From positions 744,001-808,000 of the forward strand of contig CM120646.1 in the NCBI GenBank assembly GCA_051362555.1: DNA of 64,000 nt, read 5' to 3'. This DNA is from Lingula anatina. Taxonomy: Eukaryota > Animalia > Brachiopoda. Below, piece by piece: positions 3,101 through 41,991 of this stretch. Below the pieces are notes generated by a model. It did not search any database and was not told where the DNA came from. It saw only the letters and a program-made list of their open reading frames with translations. The first letter of the stretch is position 1. The number at the start of each line of letters is the position of its first letter. Both the position numbers and the translations under genes were made by a program.

Positions 3101-6100
3101 CCATAGTTACTATTGAACTTGAATAGGAAGTCATATACTGGCAATCTAAATGTGACCTTAAAATTGACCTTTGACCTACTTTACACCATGAACTGAATTT
3201 TGCAAATTTTGCTTTCCTTTTATCTCCAAAACTGGCTGAGATAGGTCCGTAGTTACTATTGAACTTGAATAGGAAGTCATATACTGGCAATCTAAATGTG
3301 ACCTTAAAATTGACCTTTGACCTACTTTTCACCATAAACTGAACTTTGCAAATTTTGCTTCCCTTTTATCTCCAAAACTGGCAGAGATAGGTCCATAGTT
3401 ACTATTGAACTTGAATAGGAAGTCATATACTGGCAATCTAAATGTGACCTTGAAATTGACCTTTGACCTACCTTTCACCATGAACTGAACTTTGCAAACT
3501 TTTCTTCCCTTTTATCTCCAAAACTGGCTGAGATAGGTCCGTAGTTACTATTGAACTTGAATAGGAAGTCATATACTGGCAATCTATATGTGACATTAAA
3601 ATTGACCTTTGACCTACTTTTCACCATGAACTGAATTTTGCAAATTTTGCTTTCCTTTTATCTCCAAAACTGGCTGAGATAGGTCCGTAGTTACTATTGA
3701 ACTTGAATAGGAAGTCATATACTGGCAATCTAAATGTGACCTTAAAATTGACCTTTGACCTACTTTTCACCATAAACTGAACTTTGCAAATTTTTCTTCC
3801 TTTTTATCTCCAAAACTGGCAGAGATAGGTCCGTAGTTACTATTGAAGTTGAATAGGAAGTCATATACTGGCAATCTAAATGTGACCTTTAAATTGACCT
3901 TTGACCTACTTTACACCATGAACTGAATTTTGCAAATTTTGCTTTCCTTTTATCTCCAAAACTGGCTGAGATAGGTCCGTAGTTACTATTGAACTTGAAT
4001 AGGAAGTCATATACTGGCAATCTAAATGTGACCTTAAAATTGACCTTTGACCTACTTTTCACCATAAACTGAACTTTGCAAATTTTGCTTCCCTTTTATC
4101 TCCAAAACTGGCAGAGATAGGTCCATAGTTACTATTGAACTTGAATAGGAAGTCATATACTGGCAATCTAAATGTGACCTTGAAATTGACCTTTGACCTA
4201 CCTTTCACCATGAACTGAACTTTGCAAACTTTTCTTCCCTTTTATCTCCAAAACTGGCTGAGATAGGTCCATAGTTACTATTGAACTTGAAAAGGAAATC
4301 ATATACTGGCAATCTAAATATGACCTTAAAATTGACCTTTGACCTACTTTACACCATGAACTGAATTTTGCAAATTTTGCTTTCCTTTTATCTCCAAAAC
4401 TGGCTGAGATAGGTCCGTTGTTACTATTGAACTTGAATAGGAAGTCATATACTGGCAATCTAAATGTGACCTTAAAATTGACCTTTGACCTACTTTTCAC
4501 CATAAACTGAACTTTGCAAATTTTGCTTCCCTTTTATCTCCAAAACTGGCAGAGATAGGTCCATAGTTACTATTGAACTTGAATAGGAAGTCATATACTG
4601 GCAATCTAAATGTGACATTAAAATTGACCTTTGTCCTACTTTTATCCATAAACTGAACTTTGCAAATTTTGCTTCCCTTTTATCTCCAAAACTGGCAGAG
4701 ATAGGTCCATAGTTACTATTGAACTTGAATAGGAAGTCATATACTGGCATTATAAATGTGACATTAAAATTGACCTTTGTCCTACTTTTATCCATAAACT
4801 GAACTTTGCAAATTTTGCTTCCCTTTTATCTCCAAAACTGGCAGAGATAGGTCCATAGATACTATTGAACTTGAATAGAAAGTCATATACTGGCAATCTA
4901 AATGTGACCTTGAAATTGACCTTTGACCTACTTTTCAACATGAACTGAATTTTGCAAATTTTGCTTCCCTTTTATCTCCAAAACTGGCTGAGATAGGTCC
5001 ATAGTTACTATTGAAGTTGAATAGGAAGTCCTATACTGGCAATCTAAGTGTGACCTTGAAATTGACCTTTGACCTACTTTTTATCATGAACTGAACTCTG
5101 CTAATTTCTTTCTCTTTTAACTTCAAACTTGACAGAGATAGGTCCATAGTTACTCTTGAGCTTGAATAGGAAGTCATATACTGGCAATTTACTGTGACCT
5201 TGAAATTGACCCTTGACCTACCTTACGAAGAACTTAAATTTGATTGTACCATATATATTTTTTGCAATAGTTTAAAAATTCTTGTTGATTGCATTTTTAC
5301 AGGTTGTCAAGCACAAAACTGGTGGCTGTGTCCCTTATTTTGTGTATGTGGGGGTCTATACAAATGCGTTTTCTCCAGCTGGTGGTACAATATTTGGAGG
5401 CAGTATCGCCTCTCTGATCCTCTAGTTTTTAATCCTAATTTAATGCACTATGTTATTAACTGTTTTATTTTCACATTTCAACCTTAAGGCTTTTTATAAG
5501 GCTTTTATTATTTCTACTAGTGTTTTGCACTGAGATCACTTTTAAAAACTCAGACAGAATTCAATTTCTGATATATATTTTACATATATATCATTATGTT
5601 AGCTGAATAAAATTTATTATCAACCGTTATTGAACATTCCAGATTGGTTGGTGATGTTCTACTGTGCACTGGGTTCCTGTCATATGCTGGTCCATTCAAC
5701 CAAGAGTTCAGAACCACACTGAGGAACAACTGGCAGTCTGAGATGATGAAACGTAGAATTCCTTTTACCACTGACCTCAACATCACAGATATGTTGGTGG
5801 ACAACGCTACAGTAAGGATGCTTGACTAGCAAAGAGAAATGATTTGATGATTGATTTACTTAGAAAAAAGATATTGTCTTGTTTTAAAATTGTAGTTTAC
5901 TTTCTTTCATTTTACAGTCATTCTTTGCTAGTGGTGCACTGCGGGGGGACCATAACAAGAATGTAATTTAAATTTAGATAGCCGACCAAATTCTCATGAC
6001 ATCGTTGTGTATGTTTCAATAACAAATCAAAGAAGCTGCATGAGCAAGGAGGATGTTGTTATAAAAGCAAAAAAAGAGAAAAAGCAGAAAATATATCGAA

Positions 6101-15100: not shown

Positions 15101-18100
15101 AAAAATGACAGTTAATTGATGATGGTTTTATGTAAAAAAGGTGTTGAAAATGGAAAGAAAATCATTTCAGTACAGTTATCTCTTGTTAACATTTTGGCAT
15201 TTTGAAAGTGTGACCCTAACTTCCATGTCCTTGGAGACCTTTCCATATCACATTTTCTGAATATCCATGATACTTTTATTTTTTTATAAAAAATTTGATG
15301 GTCATTATGCTGTTAAGTATTATGTTATATTGCATGAAAGTTAAAGAAAACCCTATTTTGGACACTGCTGCCAGGATAGCGATTAAGGGAAAACCATGTT
15401 ACTTATGATAATCAACCTTACTGAAAAGAGTGAAGTGCAGCTTGTGTTGGAAAACCATCGTAATTGTTTTCTGTTTTGAAAGCAATGCAGTACAGTGCTA
15501 TTTGGTGCAATAAATGTATATGGATAGTAGGCAGTTAATTCAGGGTTATAAAATAATTTGCTTAATTGATTTTCAAGTTATTTCAGGGTTATAAAATAAT
15601 TTGCTTAATTAATTTTCAAGTGGGTATTAAATGAGATTACATAAACACACATTGAGATTTCATTGTAAAGTCCCATCGGTTTAGTTTTCTTAACTGTGTC
15701 ACATAATTAGGAATCGATGATTATTATGCAGGTAAATGTTATTTAATATGGAAAATAAGTTTACAAAAAAAATTTTGTGTAACGCTTACATTAATGCTAA
15801 AGATGAATAACAGTGCCTTATTATTCTCAAACTCAATAGGGTTATTCATATCATGTTAGTAATTGTACAGCTAGATTAAAAGTTTGAATAGCAGCTTTAT
15901 TGGTATTTTTTGTTATGTTTTATTTTACATTTTCTTTTAATTTTTTTATGCTGTTTTTTCACTTTTTTCAACATATATGCAACATTAATAACACAATATA
16001 AGAAAAACAGCTTAACCAATTGTCATTATACTCACAGGAGTGGTCAATCTTACAAAAATGCAGGTTGAGTTCGAAAATCAGTGTTATCGGGCCATTATTT
16101 TAGAAGTTGTACTGTTTTTTCAAATTTCCTCAGATTCAATTCTTAGGCATGTTAACAGTCTCATTATTGAACTAATAAGATACGTAAAAGTGTGTGTTTG
16201 ATATTTCCTGCATCTTTACAACATTGTTAGTTGATTATGTAAAAATGATGGTAAACTTGTTATCATGTATTGTGTAATCAAGTGTCCAAAATGGAAATAA
16301 ACTCATATCATTGCAGTTTGTCAGATTCAATCATCCACATCTGCCATGATGACCATGATGGGAAAACCGTGTTACTTATGATTGTCAAACTTTCAAAAAA
16401 GAAACACAGGACTAAAATGCAGCCCAAGTTGGAAAAGCAGTCTAATGGGCTTCTTTTTCTGGAAGTTATACATTTTAGTGAAATATTCATTATCTTTTTG
16501 GCATATTCATTGTGGGACTCGGAGCTCCCATGGACATGAAGCCGGATGGTAATCAAATTTTCTACATGTTCATGCTATTTATAGTCAATAATCAAAAATT
16601 GGTGATAATTATTCTATAATTTATTATGTAATGTTACATCAAAATTGACAATAATCTTTTTGCACTGCTACTGCAAACATTATGAAAAGAAAACTGTGTT
16701 ATTTATTATTATATTTAACTTAAGAGTATGATTTTTAGGATTGGCATGCAGTTCAAATTAGAAAGCCAGGTCAATTGGGTTATCATTTATTATTGAATTT
16801 AATGCAATTTTGTGTGAAATTTCATTTTTCTCATTCTGGCACTTTCTAAGTATAAACTTGAACTCTGATGGGCCTGAAGCCTTATGCTTTTACTTTCATC
16901 AGTGTTACCTGTTGTGCAAAATTAAAATTTGATGTTGACTGTGCAGTTAAACATAATGTATTATTGCATCAGAAGTGGTAGTCTCCTATTTTGTGCATTA
17001 TTGTTTTGTGCTCTTCTTAAGTTGTGACTTATGGGCCTGAAAGACCTTTGAGAGGGTCAGTCTATAAATTTCCCTTGGGTATCACTTCGCTAATTTCAGT
17101 TATAAAGTAATTTGCCTAATTGATAGGCTACATAATAATAATAATAATAAGTTTATTGAGCACTAAATGATGTGAATACATTTGCAGGCTCTCTAGACTA
17201 CAATATTTACATAATATATATATGGGTATACAATTATATATGTTTACATATGTAGTATGTTAAATCATACATGTGTTAATGCAAATTATGCTATAATATT
17301 AATTAATTAAGCTATTCACAGCATTATTGACAATAAGTGGCTGTGATATACTAGATTTCAGGTGAACTATGTATTTTAACAGCAGTCTTTACAAATTCTG
17401 CTATTACTTTGAGACTTTTATGACAGGGTGGATTAAGGAGAATTGACAATATCTGATCACTGTCATCTAGACCCACTACACTGATTTTCAGTAGTTCATC
17501 ATGCATTCGTTGCCTCTCAACAGTGTATCTTGTGCATTCTGTGAGGAAATGTTTTTCATCCTCTACACAGTTGCAAGCTTTACATTTTCTCTCATCAAGT
17601 GGAGTTTTAGGGTTTGTGTATCGGCCCCTTTCTATTGCTAGGTCGTGGTCACTTAGTCTAATTTTTGCTAGTGTTTTGATATCTAAGGGTGAGACACTCA
17701 TTTTGATGTAATTTTCACATTCATAAGATTTTTTAATTGTTTTGTATGTCCTTAATTTGTTTGAGGTCGAACTATTTAATTCCTGCCAAAAGAGTTTTTC
17801 GATTTTTATGTTCAATTTTTCTACTAGGTTTTCTATTTGATGTAATTTCTTTGGTGGGTTGTTATCTTCTGAGAAACCCCAACAATTGTGAAAAGATTGG
17901 ATGGATTCTGTCCATGTGTTTCCCTTTGTGTCTTGCTCAAGATTGTACACCTGTTTTACAATTCTATTATCTGGTAGTTGTTCCAGTCTAAGACTATATC
18001 TTTGGACAAGTTTAGCTATAGTTGGAAAAATAGGGTACCTGCCGAGTTCGGCTCTAGACATGGTATTGCTAGCCTGCTTTCTTAGACCTAAAATCCATTT

Positions 18101-21100
18101 GCAAAATTTCAAGTGTACCTGTTCGAATGGCATTTTATTAATCTTTTTCAGAGACATGTTTTTCTGTTTTAGTATCTCCTGTGACCAGACCTCACTACCA
18201 TAAAGCAAAATTGGTTTGATGAGTTTGTCAAATAAGTTCATGCACAAAAGAGGTTTGGAGATGTTTTGAGAGGCAAGTGCTCCTTTAAGGGAAAACAGGG
18301 CTTTTAGGGCCTTTTTCTTTAAATTTTCAATTGCTTCCTTTAATGAGCCAGTATTGGAGAAAACTATTCCCAAATATGGGTATTGTTTTACTTCTTCTAT
18401 GGGTTCATCATTTATGTAAAATTTTGTTTGATGGTCAAGTTTGCCCTTCTTCCTAAACACCATTATTTTTGTTTTCTTTGTATTAATGTGTAACTTCCAC
18501 TTTTGACAGTACTGTTCTAATTTGTTCAGTAGATTTTGCAGTCCATCCTTTGTTCTTGACAGTAGGACCAGATCATCGGCATAGAGTATGTGATTGATGC
18601 CATCTACCTTGTCTGTGGCTTTGCATGTGTGGAAGGATTCTTTTATGTCGTCTATAAATATATTAAAGAGTGTTGGGCTTAGATTATCCCCTTGGCGGAT
18701 TCCAATCTTAGCAAAAAAAGGTTTGGTATAGCTGTTGCCTGTGGAGATTCCTAATTTAGTATTTTTGTACATATGTTTAATCAGATTGTAAAATTTTCCT
18801 CCTATTCCAAGTTTCTGTAATTTGAGTAATAGACCTTTGTGCCATACCGAATCAAATGCCTTTTTAAAATCAATAAAACATGCATAGACCTTCCTATTTT
18901 GATTTGTATATCTGTTAATAATTGATTTAAGTGTGAAAATGTGATCAGTTGTTCTGTAACTTGGTCTGAACCCACCCTGTTCTTCGCTGAGTTTGCCTTC
19001 CTTTTCAATCAAGTCAGTTAGCCTATTTGCCAGAATAGAATTAAATAACTTACCCAAACAGCTTGTAATGCAAAGACCCCTGTAATTTGAGGGATCCAGA
19101 CACTCACCAGACTTATAGAGTGGTATGACTATGCCTAAATTCCAAGCATCAGGGATCTCACCAGAGTTTAAGACCAGGTTAAAAATTTTAGTCATCGCAC
19201 CAGTTAGGTATGGTCGCCCAGTCTTAAGCATTTCATTTCGTATGCTATCTGCCCCAGGTGCTTTGCCATTTTTTAGCTTTCTGAGTGCTTTTTGGACCTC
19301 CAGAATGGTTATAGGGTCATCTAGTTTGGGATTCCCAGGGCAATCTTCATATTTTTTCAATTCATCATCAATATCATTGTCACCTGGAGGCGGGATACCA
19401 CACAGTTGTTGGAAGTAATTGTGCCATACATCAGGGGCAATAAGGTTGTTCTGATCCTCTTCTTTTTTAAGTTTTTTGATAATTTGCCAAAATTCTTTGG
19501 GGTTCTTTTCTTCAATGTTCAAAAGCTTTTCAAGGAGGTTGTCTTTATGTTCTTGTTTTTTCTTTTTCAGAAGTTGTTTGTACTTTTTGCAAGCTTGATG
19601 ATAAGTGTGAGAGATAAAGTGATTATTCGGGTTTTTGTGGAGTAGTCTCCCAAGGTGTTTAACATTCCGTTTTACTTCGATGCATTGATTGTCAAACCAG
19701 GGCTGTTTTTTATTCCCTTTTCTTGGATTACTATTTTTCTTTGACATTCTTTTTGTACGCAGTGATGCACTAGCCGCGCCATCTAGGATTTTATTAAAAG
19801 ACTGACATGCCTTATTTACTCCCTCTTTAGTAGTTGGGAAGGTGGTAGTTTGAAATTCACATATGGCTTCTATGTTTTTTTCACTTTCCAGTTCACTAAG
19901 AAATTTATCTGCAGAGTCATTGCCCCAGATGTACTGATCTTTGAATTTTTGAAGCGGAATAATTTTTGGTGACTCCTTGAAACCCTTACTTGCAATTGTG
20001 AGATCTAGAAGACAGTGATCTGAGATATAGTCAATTGGGTGAACAGTGAAATACTTTACACTATCAACTAACTTATCACTCAAAACTGCATAATCCACTG
20101 CACTACAGCCATTTTGATTGTAACATGTGTAGTACCCTAATGAATTTCCTAACACTCTTCCATTCAGTATTCTCAAATTGCTGCTAATGCATAATTCTAC
20201 AAGGGTTCTTCCCTGAGAGTTTATGATACTGTCTAAGTTGTTCCGAGCAGGAGTGAGCATATCTGTGGGGTGGCTACCAGGCACTGGGATACCGTGTGTG
20301 TTATCATTTTTGATATAATCTGGGAGTGTACCAGTTCTAGCGTTAAAATCACCCATGAGGCATATCATGCCATCTGATTGATACTGAGCTATTTCCTCTT
20401 CAAGGATGTCAAAGGTAGCTTCATCAAATCTCCCATTCTTTGGCTTAATATATACTGCACACACGAATAAGTCTTTTTGGAGACCGAAACACTGTCCTGG
20501 TAGCCTTATCCATAAGGTATTCTCACTTTTGCTAGACATTACATGAAGAGCACCACTAAATTGTTTTCTGTAATATATGACTATACCGCCGGATGGGCGT
20601 CCTTTTGTTTTCTTTTTTGTTTTTATTTTGTAGAAGTGGCCATGTGTTCCACTAGGTAGGACCATTTTTGATCTCAGGGTGCTAAAAGTTTCTACACATA
20701 TGAATATATCAAAATTTTCGACCATCTCAACAAAGTTTTCATCAGTAAGTTTCTTTGCTAATCCTCTAATATTTCTCATACCGATGCGTAACATGTTTCT
20801 CTGTAATTATTGATATCTCTTTAAAAAACATACAAAAAGACCTATCCACACTACTTCAATGAACTTACTCAGTGTTATACTAGTAATTAATCAGGGAGAA
20901 AATCTTCTTTTTCTTTTTGTTGATATTCACTTACTAGTAGTAGTTTTCAGTATTTACTTAAAGCATTTAGTTGGTCACTTAAAGCTTTCAATTTAAAAAA
21001 AAAAAAAAAAAAAAAAGTTCAGCTTCATCTTAATTAAAATCAATACATCCTCATCTGACTTATGGATTATATGTAGTGATTTTTACAGACACTTTCCTTA

Positions 21101-24100
21101 TATTATTTTCAGTAGGAAAGTAATTAGTAAACATAACCATTGTGTGTATATTTAGAATATAAGTAGTAAGCTATAGTGAGAATGTTTGCAATAACTTATA
21201 ACTCTTTCATTTTATAGGTTGTGACTATTAGTCTTTCTTTCAAAGTAATGAATACTAATAATGACTATTACTTACATATGGCATCCACTGGATATTTGTA
21301 GTTCTTTACTGTACTTGTGAGTGATCATATAACTAGCTTTGGAAAAGAATTACCTTAGCTTATGCTCTAGTTTGATTAAGCAGTCTCTCAGCATTTTAAG
21401 TTCGTTACCAATATTGCTATCCTTCTGTGGCACTGGCTGTGGCTGATGAATGTCATTGTTACGCCGATGTTGGTGTACATGATGGGCAGGAAAGGTACGG
21501 CGAGGTGTGTGTCTGGCAGCTTGTTTGATGTTGCGAGCAAGCGATATTGTCCCTTTAAAGTTCAGGTGAATTCCATCATGGCTAAATAGCCACCGCTTGT
21601 CAGTGATGTCAGTGTTCTGGATGTAGGTAACATTTTCCAATGATTGACAATATCTTTGGGTGAGAGTGTTTGTTTCCTGAGCTTTTTTGTTGAATGACCA
21701 GTTACCCCACCGAGGTAGTATGTTGCTGACTATAATTTCAGTGTCAGGATATTTCTGCTTAACACTTGTAATCAAGCTCTTCAATTCGTCACAAGTTTCA
21801 CGTGGTTGTTGTTTTTGGATGTTGTTTGATCCAATTATAAGAGAAATGGTTTTTGGACTGCCCCAGTTGCTCTCCTCGATCACTGCCTTTGCATCTGATA
21901 TTTGTCCACCACTCAAAGCAAAACAATGGCTATTGGTCCCAGGGAAAATTTTGTTAGCATTGAGTCCCTTTCCAATTGAGCTAGATACTATTGCATTATC
22001 AAGGGGTCCTGTGTTGATTTTAATATTCCATCTTGTATGTCCAGGGCCTTTTTCAGTGTTCAAAGGGTATTGGATACTAGTGCCATCACTGTTTGTGGGG
22101 GTTGTGGTGATTTGAGGTTGTACATCCAAAGTCTCAGTTACTTTACCCTTGGGTGGGAAAGATTTGTTTTGTGCAGCTCCACTAGAGGGTATGGTGTTAG
22201 TAGAGGATGGTAGGGGATCCTCTTCTCCCACCTGTATCGTGGACACAGGTGAACATGTCATGTTGCTGGTCTCTACGTGATTTAGTTTGATGCTGGTTAG
22301 CACAGGTAGAGGGGTGGGCTTCATCAATAGGTTACCTGTAGTTTCTGATATCTGTGACTCCTTGTTACCTGGTCCATTGTTTGGGAGAGGCATCTCTGCA
22401 GGTGCTTGTGGCGAGGTGCAATTATCTGTCACATCTATGATGCATTGTACTCCACAGTTTGTTGTTGGTGATTGGGGAGGAGGTATATCACACTGAGTTC
22501 CAGTATCTGATGTTGCAGTGATGGTGGGAATAAAGGCACATTGGGTCCCTTCATTCACACTTGTTGTTTGTTTTGCAGTAAGCTGGCAGCCAAGCTTCCC
22601 CACTTGATCTGATAATGTTGTTAATTGGGCTGTTAAGCGGGTCAGGGTGTCTTTCAAGTCTTTGTATTGCTCTGCATTGACTGTAGTTAGCCCAGTAAGC
22701 TGCTCCTCTATGGCTTGTAACTTTTCATTGCTATTCTTTGTATCCTGTCTCTCTTTATCTGCAGTTTTAAGCATTAATACTGAGTACTGGTTTTCAATTG
22801 TTTGAAGAGTTTCTTGTATTTTGCAAATTTCTCTCTCTGATTTCATGTTTTTGGGACTAGAATAAAGTTTGCCTGTTTTGAATCCTTTGGGAGTTGAGGA
22901 ATGGCGAGGCTTTGTTGGTTTTTTAAGCTCAGTTTGACTGTTATCTAGTATTGCTGTATCAAATTCTTCTGCTGATTTACTGGTAATTTCTGTGATTTCA
23001 GTTTGCACTACTGTCTGGCTGGCTGCCACTGCTGGCTGGATCTTTTTGGGTGTTGATATGAGCATTGCAATTTTTGGATAGTCATTTGCGAGCCAAAGCA
23101 TATAAGCTGCTCCTTGGATATGTATTTTCTTGGATTTGGCTGTACTGTAGAAAGTTAGAGAAACATGTCCTAGTTTAGATCCCATAGAGCCGATATAGGG
23201 AAATTTGAGTTGTGAGCCTGATCCTGAATTGACAACATCTTCCGTGGCTTGTTTGTGGTATGATTTGCAAGCTTCAAACCACTTTTTCACTAAGGGCACA
23301 GTACTGATTCCAACTATGGCACATTGGGCATTGTGGGTTGTGGAGACAATATTAGGACCATAGTACTCGTCTTGATAGTCATAATCTGATTCAATCCTAT
23401 TTTCCTGGTCATATACTAGTCTGGATTTTGGATTAATCAGTTTGTGGTAAGCTTCACTATATTCTTGGAGTAAGATTTGAGTATTTCCATTGAACTCATT
23501 CAGGTTACTTGCCTTTGAGGTGAATGCATCCCTTATCTCTTCAGCAGTAGCATTAGGCTTCACTCCTAGCTTAGTGTAGTGATTGTCCTCCATCTTTGTT
23601 GAGACTGTCTGTTTGCTCCTTGAAAGTCTTTTCCAGAATTTAGTCTTTTCACATAAGCTTTGCCTTAAATGTTTGATCCAGTGGTATGCCTTTGAATTTA
23701 AAAACAATCTTCACCTTGATTCAGTTGCATATTAGTAGCTGGTATAGGTATTTTGGTATAACTTTTAGAGAGCTCTTTGCATCCTCTCAGATCAGTCGGC
23801 CATCTTGAAATCTCATCATAAAGCACACTTGTGATTTGAGATTACATAAAGCACACTTGTTGATATTTCCCTGTAAACTCCCATAGGTTAAGCTCTCTGC
23901 TAGATTAATAATAAGGAAGCTGATGATTCAGTTGCATATTAGTAGCTAATAATAAGGAAGCTGATGATTCAGTTGCATATTAGTAGCTGGTATAGGTATT
24001 TTGGTATAACTTTTAGAGAGCTCTTTGCATCCTCTCAGATCAGTCGGCCATCTTGAAATCTCATCATAAAGCACACTTGTGATTTGAGATTACATAAAGC

Positions 24101-24247
24101 ACACTTGTTGATATTTCCCTGTAAACTCCCATAGGTTAAGCTCTCTGCTAGATTAATAATAAGGAAGCAGTGATAATTATGCAGGTAAGTTTTGTTTAAT
24201 ATTGCAAATAAGTTTTTAATATATATATATATAAATATATATATATA

Positions 24248-24332
<85 letters not shown>

Positions 24333-27300
24333 AACTGAAAGATTAAAAGTTTGAATAGCAGCTTCATTGGAATTATATTTATTTACCTCTGCCAAGGAGG
24401 TTATATTTTCACCCCTGTTTGTCATCAACATAACTCAAAAAGTTATGGACCGATTTTGCTGAAATTTTCAGGAACTGTCAGAAGTGGGCCAAAGAGGACA
24501 AAAATCAATAATAATCAACAATTGCTACCTTGGCAGAGGTCTGCACTCTTGGAGTGCTTTTCTAGTTTTGTTATGTTTTCCTTTATAATTTTTTCTCAAA
24601 CACTTGCATTTGTGACTTTAAACTCTCATCCGCCTGAGACTCTGACATTTCTGTTTTTCCACATAAGCAGTTGTATTGTTTTTTATGTCTTTAAACATTA
24701 TGTTACTTATGTAATATTATTTTATGCACTGTCATCATTTTTCAAATATTGAGACTTACATCATGTGAATTTGAACTCTCATGGTCCTGAAACTGTAATC
24801 TTATTGAAAGGGTAGATTGAGACCATCTTCTGGGACTTCCGGAAGACAGTCAGGTTATTAAGTTTATATTGCCTGGTATCTATTTTTTCTTCTGTTGGAA
24901 GACCATCAAAATGGAGGATGGATCAAAATAGATACTTTGGAATACTGTCAGAGAATATCTCTGGGTCCGCTCATGTTATTGACCATTTTACCTGTTGTGC
25001 ATGATTATAAAATTCAGTGTTGACTGACAGTGCTATTATAAGCATTATTTATTATTGCATCAAAATTAACAAAATGACCTTTTTTGCATCTTTATTTTCT
25101 GTTTTTTGTCTGTACATTTGACAGCTTTGCTGCCTTGTTGTTACTATAAGTTTAAAAGGCCATAAAGATGACAATTGCCTACTACTACTACTACGTTATA
25201 TATAAACACCTCAGATACCAGGCAATGAGAAGTCATGGAAGACATGGTTTGATTCTGATGCCCCAGAGGAGACAGTGATACCAGATGGCTACTCCAGCGC
25301 ACTGGACACCTTTAGGAAACTGCTGCTTATAAGGTAGCTTGGTCAGTCTTACTTTACTATACAACAAACATGTGGCATTTCTTGTATCTCAATATATTGA
25401 GAAGTATATCTGTGTCTTCTCGAAGATTTTAGCATGGGTTTAGCTTCTTCGGTCTTACTATTCCTACATTTCAATATATGCTGAAGTAGTAGTAATCTTT
25501 GCCTATTCACTTTCTTTTGTGAAGTTTTTTGTACGTAATATGGATTTAATTGTTTGTATATGGGCTGCATATGCTATAGTTAATCTTTAAGTCTAATTGG
25601 TCTGTTGTATGTTGGCAGGGATGATATTTAATTACATACAATATATAATTGTTCTAATATAATATTCACAGGTCCTGGTGTCCAGACCGCACTATGGCCC
25701 AGGCCAGGAAGTACATAGCTGACTCTATATTGTGATATATAATATTCACAGGTCCTGGTGTCCAGACCGTACTATGGCCCAGGCCAGGAAGTACATAGCT
25801 GACTCTATATTGTGATATATAATATTCACAGGTCCTGGTGTCCAGACCGTACTATGGCCCAGGCCAGGAAGTACATAGCTGACTCTATATTGTGATATAT
25901 AATATTCACAGGTCCTGGTGTCCAGACCGTACTATGGCCCAGGCCAGGAAGTACATAGCTGACTCTATATTGTGATATATAATATTCACAGGTCCTGGTG
26001 TCCAGACCGTACTATGGCCCAGGCCAGGAAGTACATAGCTGACTCTATATTGTGATATATAATATTCACAGGTCCTGGTGTCCAGACCGTACTATGGCCC
26101 AGGCCAGGAAGTACATAGCTGACTCTATGGGGAAGAGATATGCAGATCCTGTCATCCTGAACCTAGAGGCCACCTGGGGGGAAAGTGACCCCAGGACACC
26201 TCTCATCTGTCTCCTGTCCATGGGCTCTGACCCCACCAACCAGATTGAGGGGCTGGCTAAGAAACTGCATACTGGTCAGTAATTCTTAATAAGAAACCAT
26301 ATATGCTGGTCAGTAATGAAGACATTTCTCAACACAAATATTTAATAATTAACCTTCTCATATATTTTTTCTTTCAAAATTATTTTCCTTTAGCAAAATC
26401 ATCTTTCATAAAGTAAAAAATATTTTCAGTATATTAATTAATATTATGAATGTACATGTTGTTGATTGAGTATGTCATTATAACTTCAGAATGCAGAGCC
26501 ATCTCCATGGGTCAGGGTCAGGAGGTACACGCCAGGAAACTGGTGGCCTTGTTTATGCAGTCAGTAAGTAGACAGTTTTATGTTTAAGTATTTAGATTTT
26601 AAAGTTTGCCTTGGGACATGAGCAATTGCATTAGGCACTAGTTGCCAAGATATACCTTTTGCTTTGCTTCATTCCAGGGAGGCTGGGCACTGCTTCAGAA
26701 CTGTCACTTGGGTCTGGAATTTATGGATGAACTCCTGGAGACACTGACTGACACAGAGACTATCCATGAGGGCTTCAGGGTGTGGATTACTACAGAGGTC
26801 CATGACAAGTTTCCCATTAGTTTACTACAGGTGTGTTTGGCAGTGTTGTTTAAGTTTATGACAAGTTCCTCATCAACTTCAGTTATATATGTGTGTAATA
26901 TATGTTCAATCATCAAACCCATGACCTTTTTATCAAGGCTGGTCTGATGAGGACCTATGTGAGTTCTGTTTCACTTTCCAACAGTTTAATTTACATATGG
27001 TGAGAGATATTGAAGTCTTTATCCATAAAAAGGGATGTTTGGGTGTTGTACTTATGATCCCAGACCACCATACAGCAAATGTAGAGCTGCATGCTTGCTT
27101 GCCTTCTGCACCATTTTCAGGATTTATTTTTTAAGAACTACCTTAATTCATCTCTGTATATCTGCAATTTTGCAAAAACTAAAAAGAAATAAAGAAAACA
27201 AAAGTGAATGCAATGATATCACCCCTGTTTTCTGTGATTCCATGAGTTAGGCTTCCATCAAATTTACCAATGAGCCACCCCAGGGTATCAAGGCTGGTTT

Positions 27301-30300: not shown

Positions 30301-33300
30301 TTCTGGAAGTTATACATTTTCAAAGTGTAAACTTGTCACATATTTTAATTACATTGGTATTACCTGTTGAGGATAATTAAAATTTGATGTTGAATTTGCA
30401 GTTTAACATAATGTATTTTTGCATCAGAATTGACAGTAGCCTATTTTGTGCATAGTTATTTCCTGTTTTTTGTCTGTACATTTGACAGCTTTGCTGCCTT
30501 GTTTTAATAATTGCATGCATTATATCTATTATCTCTCTTAAAAATGCTTTAAAAAGGTTTAGTTTACCAGTTTGGTAATTTGTCTCGAAATTAATTTCAC
30601 ATGCTTGTCCAGAAAGTTTCATCTCATCATGCTGTTGCAATTTTTTGTGGTATGATTATAACAGGTTATATTCACCAAATGCAAGTTAAAATAATAATAA
30701 ACTTATCAGGCAGCATTTCTATAACAACAGCCCCATTTGTTTTCCATTTGTTGGTGTCATTATGATCATGTGTCTTTCCCCAGGGCCCCTCCTGGAACAC
30801 AGTCCGTTACATGCTGGGAGAAGTACAGTATGGAGGGAGGGTCACCGATGATTATGACAAGAGACTCCTCAATACATTTGCTAAGGTGATTGACCCTAGT
30901 GTTGAAAGATGAAAAATTGTGATTATTTGCAACTGTTAGTCCAATCTGCCTGAGAAGCCCTTTTATATGCCTTTTACGGACAGGCTTAAACAGCAATTAA
31001 CATAACATGCATCTTTGCTCACATGACGTCAAGTCTGAGAAGAGTTGAAATGAAATGGATTAAAGTGTAAAATCTAACCAAGTCATAGAATACTGGGGTG
31101 TGGCCTTAATTTAATATCCTTCTGCTATTTGTTTAGGTGTGGTTCTGTGATGCAATGTTCAGTGACAGCTTCCAGTTCTACATTGGCTATAAGATCCCCA
31201 AGTGTAAAACTGTGGAGCAACATTTGGCCTTCATAGAAGAACTCCCCACAGTGGACTCACCTGAAGCTTTTGGTCTGCACCCCAATGCAGATATCACGTA
31301 AGTGCTGATAAGTTTGATTAACACAAGTTTGTAATGTCTTTGGGAACTGCTTTTATTTTTAACTCTCTGTTAAAAAAAAATCAAATGAAGACGTGAGAAA
31401 AATTTTTTGCCACAAAGAATCATTAGAACAATGTTTAAAATCTTATTTATTTGCAAGCTTGATATCAGGCATTTCTCATGAGTTTCTAAGTTTTGCCACT
31501 TACTTTAAAATTCATAATTAAGAGGAATTTATGGAGAAGTTTGCACCAGTTTTCAAGCAAAAATGGGAACTTAAAATATGCCAACAATACTCCATAATCA
31601 GTGGTTTATTTCACAAGGTTATTTAAGTACTTGTGCTAATGTTTATTATTATGTTCCAGTTACCAGGGTAACACAGCCAAGGAGGTCCTAGACACCATAG
31701 TGAACATCCAGCCCAAGGAGGGTGGGGGAGGAGGTGGAGAGACCAGGGAGAGTGTGGTCTTCAAGCTGGCAGATGATATGTTATCTAAGTTACCCCAGGA
31801 CTATCTGCCTCATGAGGTATGGTAACCTTTTAAGTAAAGTTATTTTACTTCACATGCTGAATACTGCTAGTCCTTCTCTATTCTTTGTGCCTCTTATTGG
31901 AACAGCTTTGATTTTTTTTTTTCTCATTGATATTCTGATGAGAATAATATATTGTAATGAATGTTGTTCATTTGTAGGTCAGAGACAGACTGAAGAAGAT
32001 GGGTATCTTGCAGCCTCTGAATATCTTCCTGAAACAGGAGATAGACCGCATGCAGAAGGTGATCACTGTGGTACGCACCACTCTCTCAGACCTGAAACTG
32101 GCCATTGAGGGTACCATTATCATGAGTGAGGTAAAGATTACTTAACATGGTTATATTTTCCTGTCTGATAACCAAATAATCAGGACTTATTCCTAAACTT
32201 ACATCATGATTTAGAATTCTTATGGTTACAGCCCACTTGAAGCTTTTTACACATGCCATCAGACATCACATTGGGTGTGATGAAAGTTACAGGGACAATT
32301 TGTCAGCATAACCAGATTATGAATAAATATGTTCCAATATCATTGGAAAGATAAACTTTCCCTGTAAAAGAAAAATGGAAGTATTAGTGTGAGTGTTTTG
32401 TAAGGTGCATCAATGTAGCTTAATGTCCAATGTGTTAATGATATAGTGTCATAATACTTCATCATATCATCACAGTAATCTCACTTCTACCACATCTTAG
32501 AACCTGAGAGATGCCCTGGACAACATGTATGATGCCCGTGTGCCAGCCCTGTGGAGGAAGATCTCCTGGCAGTCCACCACTCTGGGCTTCTGGTTTACTG
32601 AGATGCTGGAGAGAAATGACCAGTTCTTTACATGGATCTTTGAGGGCAGACCCAAGTATTTCTGGATGACAGGGTTCTTCAATCCACAGGGTATGGGGAA
32701 TGTACAATACAGAAGAATAGTGTGGGGATGTTTTCATTTTGATTGCAAAGAATATGATTGGAAAAAAATGGAACTTGCTTTGATATCATATTGCTTTTCA
32801 TCCTATTTAAGGGAGCTTGTTTTATAGTTGTTTCATTATTGTGAACTGCCATCCATAAACAAGACAGCAGAAACATGTATTTTTGATAATCCTAAATTTA
32901 CCTCGAAATGCAGGCTACATAACCCTGTATACTTAATTATCCTGAAGTTACACGTACCTTAAAGAAATGCAGGCTAGCCCTGTTTAATTGATAAATATAA
33001 ATCCTGTATACTTGCAGGTTTCCTGACAGCCATGAGACAGGAAGTAACAAGAGCTCACAAAGGCTGGGCTCTAGACTCTGTCACACTGCACAATGACGTC
33101 ACCAAGTATCTCAAGGAAGATGTCACCTCTGCTCCTTCTGTACGTGCATTAATGAGTTATTGTTATTCAGATAAAAACATGCTGCATGATAAAAATGCAG
33201 TGGTTATATGTACTGTAACAATAGTTGCTGAAATTATCTGAATTTCGTTAGCTGTAGAAATGCTTTGATTGAGTTCGAAATTTTGTAACACTTGTCATTT

Positions 33301-35347: not shown

Positions 35348-38300
35348 TCAAAGAAATTTAACAAGGTTTCTGCAAAATGTGTTTTTTTTTCTTTTTTCAT
35401 ATTGCATATTATTCCACGTACAATTGTTTGGTTCCCTCTGCCAGGAGCCACCATTGGAGTTCCATTGTTGGGACTGAGAATGTCCATTCCACTGATTACA
35501 TCCATAACCTAAATATACACAGAAAAAACTGACATGAGATAAAGTTACGATGAAAAAGCATTCACTCTGGAACACCCACTCTTTTAGCCAGTATAATATT
35601 TTTAGTCAAAATATAATAAGAAAAAAATAATTGTTTTTAAAATCTAATAGTCAATAGCAAAAAGTCATTGGAACATTTGTTTATTATAAATATAAGAGAA
35701 ATTACCTTGATTATTTCCCCAGTTATTGTTGTTATTATTATTATTGGACCACTCCTGTGAATAAGATTCATTCTGCCATCTGTTATTCCAAGACCCTTGG
35801 TTACTGTTGCCATAGCAATCTCCCTGTCCCATTTGTGAATTATACCCATAGTCTGAAATGAACACGAAGGATGTTTGAGAAGACTCCAAAGGAAATCAAA
35901 TTATAATACGGCAGTTCATAGTTTCATTTCATGGGCATATAATATACATATATTACTACAGTAATGAATTCATACAAAACATTTTTTTTACTTACTTATT
36001 TATTCATTTTATTTATTTTATTTTACTTCTTTTTTTTTTTTTTTTTTTTTTGATTTGGTGTAAACATCACTTTTTCTGCAAAAAATAAAGAACTGAATCC
36101 AGTAGGGGTTAATTATATTTTAAAGAAGAATGTAACATGCATGCAAGACTTCATGCCCATTGATTGAAAATCAGATCATTACAGATTAATGAATAATTTC
36201 ATGGTAACCATGATATTATGATAACAGTTATTTGGAGCTACTCAGAGTTCCAAGGAAAAGTGATCATGTTAGCCCCAGCTTCATGTAAAAGAAAAAAAGG
36301 GTGTTTGTAAGAAATGTGAGTGAGAAAGAATGAGATTATTTATTAGAGAGAGAAATAGAGTGAGTGAGAGTATGAGGGTGTGTAAGAGAGAGAGAAAAGG
36401 AGAAAATGTTAGAGAATGGTGCCATCGATTTAAGTACTATGTGATCATACTTAATGTGCTCTTTTATTCCATAGATAAACGTTACACACATACCTTGAGC
36501 ATTTGTCCCATTCCTGTTGTCATATTCCCAGTTATTTCCAAAGTTATCGGAGGTAAAATCAGTCTCCTCCTGCCGTCCTTGATCCCAGTTATCTTGCTGA
36601 TAATCACCAGAATAAAATTCACCATTTCTATCTAGTAGAGTTTTCCTATAAGGCTGCCTCCCTGAGCTTGATTTATTGTAGAACTGGCCTCGACCTCTAC
36701 CTCGGCCTCTGCCTCTCCCCCTACCTCTTCCTCTCCCCTGTCCTCTGCCAAATATGTTGGATTGGTCATGCCATGTAAAATAAGAGCCCTTTGATTTGAA
36801 TCTTTGTACCTTGTCTATTGCTTTGGACTCAAGAAGATAAGGCTTTTTGTATGACTTGTGTTCTTGTTTTTCATGGTATTGCATGGAACCCTTTTCTCCT
36901 TTGTAGAATTTGTGTTCGACTTTTTTCTCGTACAGTGTCTTATTTGGTGAATCTGAAAACTTTGAGTGAGAATTGTGCTTCTGATACTTCAATCCCTCAG
37001 ATTTGAATTTTTTAGTTGATTTTGTATCATCAAATGATTTCCTCACCTCTGTTGATGAGGATCTCTCTCGTTCTTTTGAGTTGCTATCATAACATCTTCT
37101 TTTGGATTTTGGTGGATTATGAGTATCTCCCTCCTGTTCATTATTTTGATTTCTTTTTGACTGTTCGTTCTTTTCTGCTTTTGAAGGCTTTCTCTTTCTT
37201 CTGTTTTTGTGTTCATCATAAGGTGATATTCTTTCTGTCTGTATTTTTTCATGGCTTTGACTGTCCACATCTTGCATCATTTCTTGGTTTCTTACGGGTG
37301 CAACACCGGCTTTTTCACATTCATTTTTTCCTGGCAGTGCATTATCTTTCCCTCCATTCTTGGTCAGTAACAGCTTCCCTTCACTAGTGTCTGGTTTCTG
37401 TTGTTTCCTGTTACTCTGGGAATTATCTTGTGTTGCTGAGTCACTCAAACATAAAACTTGTCTGGAGATGGCAGGTGGGCTGGTTGGTCGAAATCCTTCA
37501 GTTGGTCTTTGAACTTCCAACTGTGTGGAACAATTCTGCTCACATTTCTCTAAATCTTCAGCTGGTTTCTCTTTGGGCAGTCTGCTTTTCTCTAGGTTTT
37601 CACACTGTTCTTGTTTTTCGGCACTAGCTTCACCTTTTGAAATTTCAGGTCTATTTTGCTGCTGATCATACACTGCAGAGTGATTTGATTTGCATTCACT
37701 ATTCAGGTTGGCAGAAAGATTGTCAGAAACTTCACCCATAGGAGACTTATTTTCAAGCTGTTCATTAGATTTACATATGTTTACTGGCTGTGATGAAGCC
37801 TGGTCTTGTTCCTGTTGGATGGGTTTTGTTTGATCCTTGACCAATACAGGACCACCCCTAGTCTGTGGGATTTCACTCTGATCATCAACTCCACTATCAT
37901 TGCCTGCCCCTACTGGGTTTTGTCCTTGTTCAGGTGAGCTTTGGACAATTTTCAAGTTGTGGTCCTTTTTTATTAAGGATACACCAATCTGTGCTTCACT
38001 TCGTATAAGAATGGATGAACTGGGGTCAGAGACTGGTTCCTCTGGTTGCCTTACTGAAGATTGCTGTTTCTCTGTATCACATGTCTCCTGTGTCTTAACT
38101 TGGTGTTTCAACTCTTCATCCCCTTTCTCTTCTTTCACTGTTCCTTGTACACTTTTGGACTCTGGTTCCAGCAACTTACTAGGTTGGACATGTTTTTTGT
38201 CATCACCTATTTTTCTCATATTCATTTCAACTTTTTGATCTGATAGTCTCAATGTGACTTTCTGTTGAATCTGTGCTGAGGCCATTCCTTCATACTTTCT

Positions 38301-41300
38301 TTGTGATATTTTACTCTCTTTGATCTTTCTCCTAAGTTTTTCAATTGGACATTCTGCTTTTTGCTCCTTTTTCTTTTCAGACTGAACAGACGGATTACTC
38401 CTGCTCTGTTTGTGAGTGGTGTTTTTTAAGTCATCTGTCCAAGTTCTTTTCTGTCTCGATGGTGTCATTCTGTTCATATCAAAGTCACTGCACCTCCTAG
38501 GTCTCCTCTTCCTGGGGTCTTCACCTCTATCATCGGTTACCTTGACAACATAACTTTTCATCCTTGCCTTGACCTTGGTAGGGGTGTCCGGGGAGCTCCC
38601 ACATGTACTAGCGTGCCTGTTAGCTCCGCGGTCCGTGGGTGACTTTTCAATAGATGTGTTATGCCCACTGTCTCTCCTGTGGCATTTGGTTTCTGTGACT
38701 TGTAAGTGTTCATTAGGATTGGTTGTATTTTCAGCCTTCATCGCTGCTTCAGTTTTTTCCTTTGTGTTATGTTTTGTCTCTGACTGAATCAAGTCTTTGT
38801 CAGTTCTTTCCTTATCAGTTTTTACTTTTGACTTTGATATTATGTCCTCATTGGAACCAATTTCATTATTCTGTTCTATGCAACTATGTTTCTTTTCTTG
38901 ATTCAGGGATTTTTCTTGTGCTTTATTGTCCACATTTGTACACTGTTTCTTTATACCTTGTTCTTGGTTTGCTGACAATTTTGGTTTGGCATCACTTTTC
39001 TGACTAAAATCATCAGAGTCATTATTAGTCATACCAGGTGATATCAAGAGGTTAGGAAGTTCCTTAGATATCTCCTCACCAGCATGTTCCATTGCTTCTT
39101 TTGTATCGCCAAGTGATGGTAGAATGCCATTTTCATTTTCTTCGTTATTAGACTTTGAACTGCAAGTTTTGCTCTCAACATCGTGTTCACTGTTTTCTTT
39201 GGATTCGTTTTCATTTGTTTCAGACAACGTACCTGCAGGCGAATTTACAGTTTGGGACACTTTTTGAGTAGACTGCACTTCCAAATCTTTCACTGTATCC
39301 AATGATAAGTTGTTTTCATTTTTCACGTCTGCATTTTTACCACAAAGAGCCTCAGTTTTCAGATCCTGCGGGGAAGACTTTTCTACTCCAGCCTCATGTC
39401 CTAGAGTAGATAAATCGCACCCACTTTTATTTTCATGGGGTAAGTTTGTCAAAGATGTCTCCTGTTCGGATCCTCTTGCACTACTGCCTACCCTCCCTTT
39501 GTTTTTGTTATCCAAGGGCAGTGGATTTTCATTGGCGACATCATCAACGTTAAATTCCTGGTTGTTGTTTCCCAAATTCTGCCAATCTTTTTCTTCTAAC
39601 ATATGCTCATTTTCATGATGAACCAAATTGCAATTGCAATCAGTATCGTTTCGTAATTCTATACAATGTGCATCTTCCTGGGTATATTGATGACTATCTA
39701 CCTCCATCATTTCTGTTGTGTCAAAAAATAGCGGTGTCTCTTCATGTTCCTTGTCAACTGGTTTGAAAACCTCTCTCACGTGTGTATTTGTGATTGGCAC
39801 TGATAGGTTTGGCAAACTTTCCTGCAGCAATGTACCACTGCCATCACCAGCTCTTCCTGGTGAATTCATCAGAGCTGTAACTTGACCAGTTTCCTTTTGC
39901 CTGCATTCCACCATTTCTGGCGACTCCACCGGTGGCACTTGTTTGCAGATATATTTGTCAGCGTTGTCTGTGTTATCAGGCGTCGGGTGTACACCAGTTG
40001 TGTTGTTTTGTTCACTGGCACTAGTCTCGTGTGTTCCCCTACACGTCTTCACTCTCTTCTTTGATTTAACATCTCCGTTTCCTAACTGAACAGAGTTTAT
40101 AGTGTTGTTCTTTGTTACTGTGGTTGACTTGCTATCTTTTGATTTCAATGAGAGCACTTGTTTACACTTTTTTCTTGAGGTATTCTTTAACCTTGTCTTC
40201 CTCTTGGTTTTCGGGCTATTACGTTTGGATTTTACAATAAGCAAATGCCTGTTTTTTCGCTTAATTTTCATCTTCGTTGATTTCTTAGTTCTTTCTCTTC
40301 TTGTGTTCTTCAGATCGGCATTCTTTGTGACGGAATGCAAGTCTTCACTCTCTTTTGAAGTAATATTATTGACGTCGCTTTTTAATGTTTTATCTTCTCC
40401 TTGAGTGTCACGAACGATGGAGTCCTGGGCAGGTGGTGAGCTCGGAAAACCGTCATTGCTGTTTGATGTCGGCGATAACAGACCATTGCCCGCCCTGCTC
40501 CAACCTTTTCTAAGAGAATACTTCCACGCTTGGACATCTCGGGCCCACGGACAAAAACGAAATTCACTTTCATTGTAATCTAACTTCAGTTTCTTTGGAC
40601 TGTGTGACGTACTACGTTTCCTTGATTTCACAGATACCTGTTTAAAGGTATTTCTTGTGATGGCGTCTTTTGAGGGCGTGTCCGGATAAACGTCCTTCAC
40701 TGGAGACACCTTGATGCGTGTTTCCTTGGGATCGCTGAGAGAGGGTACGGTCATGAGCGCAGTCACAGTGGGCGTGGACGGTGGGTGTGGTTTGATGGGC
40801 GTGGTGGGCGTGGCCTCAGTTGGATTATCCTCTGTAGGCGTGGTCTTGATGGGCGTGTTCTCGCTGCCCGTGTTCATTGTTTTGATAGGAGGACTCTCTG
40901 CTGAAAGACTTGCATGGATATCATTTGGTTGGCAGCCGTCTGGAAAAGTATCATTTGGAGAATGCTGCACAGGAAGAGTATCAGTTTTCGGTAAGTTAAC
41001 AGAAAGAACGCCTTTTTGGGAAGTGACACTATAATAGAAATTATCTGAAGGCTCTTGTTTAACATTCACTGGGATCTCATCCACTGTCTGTGCTTTGATG
41101 GTATCAAGAGTTTCAGACAGTCCATCACGAGTTTTATCCGACTGATCTTTAGAATTGCCCGCCTTAAAATCCGTCGCCATTTCAGAATCATTAGGCTCCT
41201 TCTTAATACTCAGTGAAGTCACAGATGCTATCTGCAAAGGTAACTCATTTTGTAATTCTGTCGTTTTGTCGGCCACCTCTGAAGATTTGTTCGCTGTGTT

Positions 41301-41991
41301 GACGTTGGCTTTGGAAACATTTCCATCCTGACTGTCTGGGGGTTCTGTCTTTATCTTAATGGTTGGCATAGCGACGCTTGGTCCGGTGGTGAGACCAGAG
41401 GCGGGTGCCGGAACTTCAACAATTCCATCTAAGTCTTCAGTGCCCAAAGTCCTGAAAGACCCGTCTTCAATGCCGTCCGACTTCAAGCCGTGCATGTTTA
41501 ACTTGTGTAGCACCATGCGTGCCCTACTAACGGCGGAATACCGGCACCCATCAACACCGCATTTCAGGATTTGGTGGCAATCTTTGAAATGTTTCAACAC
41601 GTCGCACATGTCCGTTGATGAAAACTGGCAGAGATTGCAGAAATTCTGAGTTGTTCCTAGGAGAATCACAGCGTCGGGGTGAATGGACGTTCCTGACTCC
41701 TCTTCCTTGGTTGTGCCCTCCTTTTTGACAACACTCGGTAACTCCTTTTTGATGGGGACTGGATTTGAGTGTCGAACACTGGCTAGCCGTTTTAACACGT
41801 CCGTGTTGATTCCGTTAAGGCCGTACAGTTTATTTTTCACGGACGCTTGATCCAGTAACATTTTCTCTGACTTGGCCATTTTTAAAATGGCCTCGGAGTT
41901 AATGCCGTTCTTCCCGCGCAGCCTGTGCATGTTTAGCGATGTTTCGAGGCTCAAGATGTTGGTTTCATCTACAGGATCATTTACAGGATCA
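35348..41991 (-). CDS. Uncharacterised large nuclear-type protein: two C2H2-like zinc fingers, long disordered region, RG repeats, N/Q/G/W-rich C-terminus (~1900 aa; 5' end uncertain)
   Basis: Exons 41991-36494 (5.5 kb open; acceptor tttccag, donor caag|gtatgt), 35852-35706, 35508-35348 (stop), phases compatible. Fingers CNLCQFSSTDMCDVLKHFKDCH and CGVDGCRYSAVSRARMVLHKLNMH. First in-frame ATG in the big exon at 41928-41930; upstream exons not identified. Confidence 0.8.

Follow-up and report, generated by a model that had tools for sequence, protein, structure and literature searches.

The 64,000-nucleotide stretch of Lingula anatina DNA analysed here (the window) contains a complete LINE whose first open reading frame (ORF1) begins with a captured J domain and a second domain, D2, that has no name in Pfam. 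Our main reading, to which we give a probability of roughly 0.55, is that this intact element carries a member of an ORF1 family in which most relatives likely recruit Hsp70, and that the window lineage, which has lost the HPD motif, keeps its J domain as a structural part. What is notable, on our best reading, is a class of LINE ORF1s in which the J domain is mostly canonical and is joined to an unnamed partner domain; the window copy is an HPD-less offshoot of this class.

A complete LINE inside a host repeat

The element is read from the minus strand, in gene-poor and AT-rich surroundings, and consists of a 5′ UTR, ORF1, ORF2 and a (TTA)n tail between copies of a 5-bp target site duplication (TSD). 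The 5′ UTR (23594–23816) has near its 5′ end the motif CAAGATGGCC (23798–23808), which we take, in a LINE 5′ UTR, to be a YY1-type site. ORF1 (21350–23593, 747 aa) is uninterrupted, and its first 63 residues are those on which the earlier sequence-only reading of this DNA was built. A spacer of 555 nt (20795–21349; 73% AT, with 11 ATGs and a T22 run at 21016–20995) separates it from ORF2 (17351–20794, 1147 aa), which encodes an APE endonuclease (aa 8–261), a reverse transcriptase (RT, aa 568–811) and a C-terminal Cys/His motif, and matches Pfam Exo_endo_phos and RVT_1 (E 1.5e-42). The 3′ UTR (17136–17350) contains AATAAA followed by the (TTA)n tail.

The TSD, CATAA, occupies 23817–23821 on the 5′ side, where contigs from DNA runs X2, X6 and X8 have a loose end at 23817, and 17131–17135 on the 3′ side, where it is partly ambiguous with the tail. 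The empty insertion site is visible in contigs from the same three DNA runs, and these contigs indicate that the LINE was placed inside a high-copy host repeat with duplication of CATAA. Together with the endonuclease and RT of ORF2, they bear out the claim that the element is full-length. In further copies the 5′ junction falls at 23806–23816, and run X8 by itself supplies four distinct flanks (23808–23816); because different flanks are joined there, we place the 5′ end of the element in this interval and conclude that there have been several full-length insertions. Contig depth, which is not copy number, is 200–450 across ORF1 and 2,600–4,700 towards the 3′ end, and this approximately tenfold rise fits the shape expected of 5′ truncation. 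APE and RT in ORF2, a simple-repeat tail, a TSD and dispersed 5′-truncated copies are the features of an autonomous APE-type LINE.

Several smaller observations concern the element's borders and surroundings. An exact 204-nt duplicate of the 5′ junction, comprising the element's first 100 nt and host repeat, lies at 23965–24168 with a 248-nt period. The interval 23717–24168 accordingly holds a second copy of the first 100 nt of the LINE, including CAAGATGGCC, and a 41-nt unit occurs twice in the interval between the two copies; the repeat is either a local duplication or an assembly artefact. The host repeat around the LINE (16900–17135 and 23817–24215) has a very high copy number and is seen in poly(A) RNA reads, and other copies of it occur within the window at 15632–15762 and 30343–30461. 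A search of 15500–26000 against Rfam gave no match at E 0.1. Farther away, a stop-free minus-strand frame of 1903 codons (36336–42047), low in complexity and with a weak C2H2 zinc-finger match near its start, is likely a very large host-gene exon.

The ORF1 stop codon is embedded in a splice-donor-like sequence, AAG/GTAATT (21349–21355, minus strand), and pyrimidine-rich AG sites stand immediately ahead of ORF2 (20795–20830, minus strand). We rejected a spliced ORF1–ORF2 fusion; no such joint was found in three RNA runs, in which coverage of this region was near zero. In the same three RNA runs, of which 6, 6 and 25% was read, no read covered 23426–23676, and depth was at most 2.3 elsewhere in ORF1.

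The J fold, D2 and the remainder of ORF1

The J-like domain occupies aa 1–63 of ORF1 (23405–23593, minus strand). It retains the hydrophobic core of a J domain, has NLNE at the position of HPD, and its loop is a few residues shorter than the canonical one. The basic helix II of canonical J domains (R22, K/R26) is absent along with HPD: the window protein has R at 22, T at 26 and S at 27, and a net charge of −1 in this helix. The sequence-only reading had noted a J pattern without HPD and proposed the PF00226 profile and structure prediction as checks, and both recovered a J fold. Pfam DnaJ matches over its entire profile at aa 4–62 (E 1.1e-5), scoring 25.9 bits in full ORF1, against a cut-off of 27.8, and 28.4 bits, above the cut-off, when aa 1–100 are searched alone. 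The best sequence match in the PDB is the J domain of DNAJA1 (E 3e-6), with NLNE aligned to YHPD. AlphaFold, given aa 1–190 and a 42-row alignment, produced a model with pLDDT 90, pTM 0.83 and four helices within aa 5–64; pLDDT was 38 when the alignment was withheld.

When the model was compared with known structures (VIA), the 14 best matches were all J or J-type domains, with Z values of 7.7–9.6. Foldseek returned no PDB match at E 0.001 and one J protein among viral structures. The viral-structure fold search gave J-domain matches or weak single-domain matches only, and no solved or viral structure in the fold searches spanned both J and D2. A chance resemblance to J domains is ruled out by the agreement of profile, structure and HPD-bearing relatives, and the N-terminus of ORF1 is, as modelled, a real J fold.

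D2 (aa 82–182; 23048–23350, minus strand) was missed by the sequence-only reading, which had ORF1 made of a J domain, a coiled coil and an esterase; the J domain and the esterase were found, the coiled coil is likely, and D2 is a fourth part. It is a predicted alpha/beta domain of KA1/TBP-like appearance that belongs to no Pfam family, is net basic (10 K/R vs 4 D/E) and has the conserved pattern G-x-[IV]S[LIV]T-x-Y...[VI]QG-x-x-Y-x-LW. Its fold matches include the KA1 domain of SAD-B (Z 7.6, 94 residues aligned, rmsd 3.1), the VCR (KA1) of METTL16 (7.4), the N-terminal domain of RNase H3 (Z 7.4, 69 aligned, rmsd 2.1) and the NRD of RnlA (6.1). Since these values of 6–7.6 fall short of 8, under which the tool advises caution, and since D2 was modelled only together with J, within aa 1–190, we treat the KA1/TBP-like class as a lead. 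In Pfam the best matches of D2 are weak ones, to RnlA_toxin (E 0.017, seen in 5 of 28 members) and DUF3378 (E 0.1). Ligands of these fold relatives are RNA, RNA:DNA hybrids or acidic lipids, and by analogy we would guess that D2 binds RNA or acidic lipid. The pTM of the model, computed over both domains, suggests that J and D2 are held in a fixed arrangement.

Beyond D2, a likely coiled coil (aa ~251–345; 22559–22843) was assigned from weak Pfam matches to coiled-coil families at aa 251–343. It is followed by a linker (aa 346–530; 22004–22558) that is 37% Pro/Ser/Thr and, judging from this composition, likely disordered. The SGNH esterase domain that had been recognised (aa ~531–700; 21494–22003) was found by Pfam as Lipase_GDSL_2 (aa 559–681, E 2.7e-8). 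Its predicted catalytic residues, S539, N590, D673 and H676, align with the catalytic positions of the family, and S539, in block I, sits in S-S-S, which replaces G-D-S. The SGNH pattern of Ser, Gly, Asn and Asp-x-x-His is that of a Type IV (esterase) ORF1, as far as sequence can tell.

The sequence-only reading proposed a captured fold at the head of an intact ORF1 and asked whether other copies carry it; the analysis supports a captured J fold as a constant component of the ORF1 of a mobile LINE. Run X6 and run X10 each have D2, J and the 5′ UTR joined on a single contig, with 1 and 29 differences from the window over ~780 nt. J therefore belongs to the mobile unit and is not a local accident, and the contigs of these two other runs rule out that a host DnaJ exon was joined fortuitously to the window copy only. 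NLNE is unchanged in the 96%-identical X10 copy, among the 28 of its 29 differences that are listed. The selection test pooled copies and runs and drew on 40 of 93 differences, those with the best support. Of its 22 listed coding differences 15 are synonymous and 7 non-synonymous (pN/pS 0.14, p 6e-6), and for J alone the 11 changes divide into 6 synonymous and 5 non-synonymous (pN/pS 0.23, p 0.016). These figures show purifying selection on the HPD-less J domain among copies of the family. Other copies are degenerate and have J frameshifted.

A family of J–D2 proteins that has repeatedly lost HPD

Word-indexed protein searches with aa 1–185 and aa 520–700 of the window protein found no relatives. 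A phmmer search with aa 1–190 against 1.84 billion representatives gave 80 matches, half of which (40/80) contained D2; the relatives share 25–36% identity with the query, and Pfam recognised DnaJ in 36 of the 42 phmmer matches submitted to it. A profile built from D2 alone retrieved 91 longer proteins. Our census comprises 138 D2 proteins among 183 collected, counting the window's own and its near-copies. A J profile built from the family detected an upstream J domain in 113 of the 138, with HPD in 85 of these 113, and the remaining 25 are nearly all N-terminally short gene calls. An esterase, detected with a profile built from family members, is present in 65 of the 66 D2 proteins of at least 650 aa, and some ORF1s of the family carry PHD fingers, CCHC knuckles or NADAR in addition. 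Protein P0013 (1146 aa) combines an HPD-bearing J domain, D2, a Cys-rich finger, NADAR and the esterase, and this domain set ties the J–D2 family to NADAR-carrying LINE ORF1s. We left L003 out of the counts (34% over 50 residues, E 7e-4).

Removal of incomplete modules left 104 for clustering. Clustering at 70% identity gives 56 representatives, 37 of which retain HPD, and at 50% identity 17 of 25 do so, a majority that is partly a sampling effect, as many members may come from few genomes. From its presence in 37 of 56 relatives we take a canonical J domain to be the family hallmark, and loss of HPD to be secondary and repeated. In a tree of D2 only (42 rows, J columns excluded), placing the 14 HPD-less rows in one clade is rejected (p-AU 0.0005). 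The supported branches of this tree require a minimum of 2 changes of HPD, and bootstraps give 5–7. Some single losses may represent dead copies. Such repeated loss implies that the Hsp70 link is dispensable. The named members of the family, which make up 21 of the 91 rows of the D2-profile search, are all from Branchiostoma; all 21 lack HPD, and a long insertion lengthens their helix II–III region. The window copy sits on a long branch.

According to PMC10349383, Hsp70 is bound and stimulated through two components, HPD and R22/K26 of helix II, and both are lost from type IV J-proteins. The family shows the same coupling. Among the 37 HPD-bearing representatives the net charge of helix II ranges from 0 to +4 and averages +2.3, against a mean of −0.5 among the 19 HPD-less ones, and K/R stands at both 22 and 26 in 29/37 vs 1/19. 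Joint retention or loss of HPD and the docking surface is what would be expected if engagement of Hsp70 were the selected trait.

Among the relatives, a whole LINE was seen for L001 alone (467–5680), whose J domain has HPE, not HPD. Its ORF1 contains J, D2 and the esterase with two C-terminal CCHC knuckles and is followed directly by an APE–RT frame; esterase and CCHC thus occur in one ORF1. The L001 ORF2 is 22% identical to that of the window. Its motifs look to us like those of the CR1/L2 group, and the motifs of the window ORF2 like those of RTEX; comparison of the two sequences makes an ORF1 swap between LINE clades likely. Members with HPD are tied to ORF2 by one fused gene call and by circumstantial signs; across the family, few members have direct LINE context, and for most it is indirect. 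The gene call, P0130, has an HPD-bearing J and D2 fused to an APE that is 33% identical to the window ORF2. P0152 has a short stretch of APE at its end. Near-identical clusters of 3–24 members lie on different contigs, and these clusters, like the single contigs of 6–7 kb, fit dispersed repeats. The HPD-bearing L002 has the motif AAGATGGC ~200 nt before ORF1, the same as in the window, and its sequence stops before any ORF2.

Possible mechanism, alternatives and known systems

In order, the family ORF1 has J, D2, a linker or PHD, a coiled coil and the SGNH esterase, and this would be explained most simply if a functional J domain was captured a single time, beside D2, within an ORF1 of the esterase type. 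The ORF1 protein (ORF1p) would multimerise through the coiled coil, its esterase would act at membranes, as in ZfL2-1 ORF1p, and the protein would coat RNA near membranes. D2, against which J is predicted to pack, would bind RNA or acidic lipid and so keep the particle beside J, and J would trigger local ATP hydrolysis by Hsp70, by which the ORF1p/ORF2p/RNA particle could be folded, remodelled or unpacked. Lineages without HPD would depend on host J-proteins. In the window lineage and in amphioxus the Hsp70-facing surface would be gone, and J probably persists as it is packed on D2. We infer the part played by Hsp70 in the family from motif conservation in the J domain. There are models for such an arrangement: class C J-proteins aim Hsp70 at one client, and polyomavirus T antigen, also a protein of a mobile element, uses an N-terminal J domain to aim Hsp70 at its own complex. 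T antigen differs in being a DNA virus protein with a helicase and an unrelated architecture. A broader proposal, which we hold tentatively and at less than even odds, is that this is an old animal class of LINE ORF1 with its own Hsp70 co-chaperone, J on D2, that has moved between clades and repeatedly turned Hsp70-independent. Movement between clades would follow from the J–D2 shared by the window element and L001, given how far their ORF2s have diverged.

The sequence-only reading had explained the loss of HPD by an Hsp70 decoy, and this is no longer the best reading of a protein whose relatives mostly keep HPD (37/56) and whose helix II is net −1. An HPD-less J domain might bind Hsp70 without stimulating it, or pair with a host J-protein, and so block or borrow the chaperone; the Pam16–Pam18 pair is a precedent. 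Purifying selection acts on J despite the loss of HPD, the equivalent of R22 is retained, and HPD-less lineages arose repeatedly and have been successful in amphioxus (21/91 rows), all of which would suit a decoy or J-like partner. A decoy, however, needs to bind, and with its negative helix II, Thr in place of K/R at 26 and a shortened loop the window J domain is likely to bind Hsp70 poorly. In amphioxus the loop is altered in the opposite way, by a long insertion, a change more in keeping with release from Hsp70 than with lineages converging on one decoy surface. We consider the decoy or partner unlikely, and evasion of chaperone-dependent silencing, which had been suggested with it, is unsupported by this analysis.

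It is also rather improbable that J and D2 form a single structural unit for binding RNA, RNA:DNA hybrids or membranes that has nothing to do with Hsp70 even where HPD is present. The fixed arrangement suggested by a pTM of 0.83 across both domains would be in keeping with such a unit, as would the resemblance of D2 to the METTL16 KA1, RNase H3 N-terminal and SAD-B KA1 domains and the statement, in the part of PMC3905857 available, that esterase ORF1s have no recognised RNA-binding domain, but joint retention of HPD, the K34 equivalent and helix II charge in 37 representatives would go unexplained. Least probable is a passenger J domain that arrived with a captured D2 or a host J–D2 gene, has no role in retrotransposition anywhere and is decaying: repeated HPD loss, the long branch of the window copy, the modular and shuffled nature of ORF1s (PMC4120745, in part) and the dispensability of ZfL2-1 ORF1p in HeLa cells (PMC3905857, in part) would agree with it, but HPD and a basic helix II are maintained among members 25–35% identical, synonymous changes are in excess in the J domain of the window family, and D2 without an upstream J is almost confined to N-terminally short gene calls.

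The main reading, of a family that mostly recruits Hsp70 and a window lineage that has ceased to, bears on how LINE particles assemble, stay soluble and shed ORF1p ahead of reverse transcription. With a canonical J domain encoded by an ORF1 family, a chaperone step becomes testable by one H-to-Q substitution, and the HPD-bearing and HPD-less forms that occur in nature provide ready comparison pairs. D2 might be the RNA- or membrane-binding domain so far missing from esterase ORF1s.

As to known systems, we assign the window element to RTEX provisionally, from its ORF2 motifs and from the match of its ORF1 layout to published Table S1. In the available part of that table, RTEX ORF1s (RTEX-n_BF, RTEX-1_SK, RTEX-n_NV) are listed as coiled coil plus SGNH esterase, 'Type IV' (Schneider et al. 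2013, PMC3905857). Where a Branchiostoma or Saccoglossus row lists both, the coiled coil is given from aa 266–356 and the esterase from 469–550, compared with ~251 and ~531 in the window, and nothing is annotated in the 270–350 residues before the coiled coil, where J and D2 sit (PMC3905857, rows available). The window ORF1 has this combination of coiled coil and esterase, which is not diagnostic of RTEX since CR1/L2 and Penelope elements share it. Because the named homologues are all from Branchiostoma and have an RTEX-like layout, they are probably the tabulated RTEX elements themselves, and the carriers of the family probably include catalogued Repbase RTEX elements with unannotated N-termini. 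The suggestion that the architecture is undescribed therefore holds for the J–D2 head, which the part of Table S1 available does not describe, and not for the elements, which have probably been catalogued (PMC3905857).

ZfL2-1 of the CR1/L2 clade resembles the window element in having a coiled coil, dimeric in ZfL2-1, and an SGNH esterase, which in ZfL2-1 is active and binds liposomes; its ORF1p differs in being about 300 aa long, in its arginine-rich motif and in having neither J nor D2, according to the part of PMC3905857 available. The classification of ORF1s in the accessible text of PMC4120745 comprises RRM, CCHC, PHD, Tnp22, zf/lz and esterase types, with J not among them, and an occurrence of 'dnaj' there is a reference-list artefact. 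Our literature search for DnaJ or J domains linked to LINE ORF1 found no describing paper; a Repbase entry may carry a note of it. A Crassostrea Tx1 ORF1 with NADAR (PMC12477816, in part) is likewise a host-type domain captured by a LINE ORF1, of another kind and in another clade.

Class C and type IV or J-like proteins (DNAJB13, DjlB, RESA, Pam16) have J domains fused to other domains, as in the family; they are host genes, unlike a retrotransposon ORF1. To our knowledge none of them combines a KA1/TBP-like partner with an esterase. With type IV proteins, as described in the part of PMC10349383 available, the window J domain shares an altered HPD and a less basic helix II.

Several amphioxus database proteins annotated as 'J domain-containing', 'GPCR' or 'esterase' are likely LINE ORF1s, which would inflate counts of J-proteins. 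UniRef has given one amphioxus member the automatic label 'J domain-containing protein'. The Branchiostoma entries P0058, P0165, P0172, P0176 and P0181, labelled 'G-protein coupled receptor' or EFCAB8, contain the family ORF1 and are likely mis-annotated or fused gene models.
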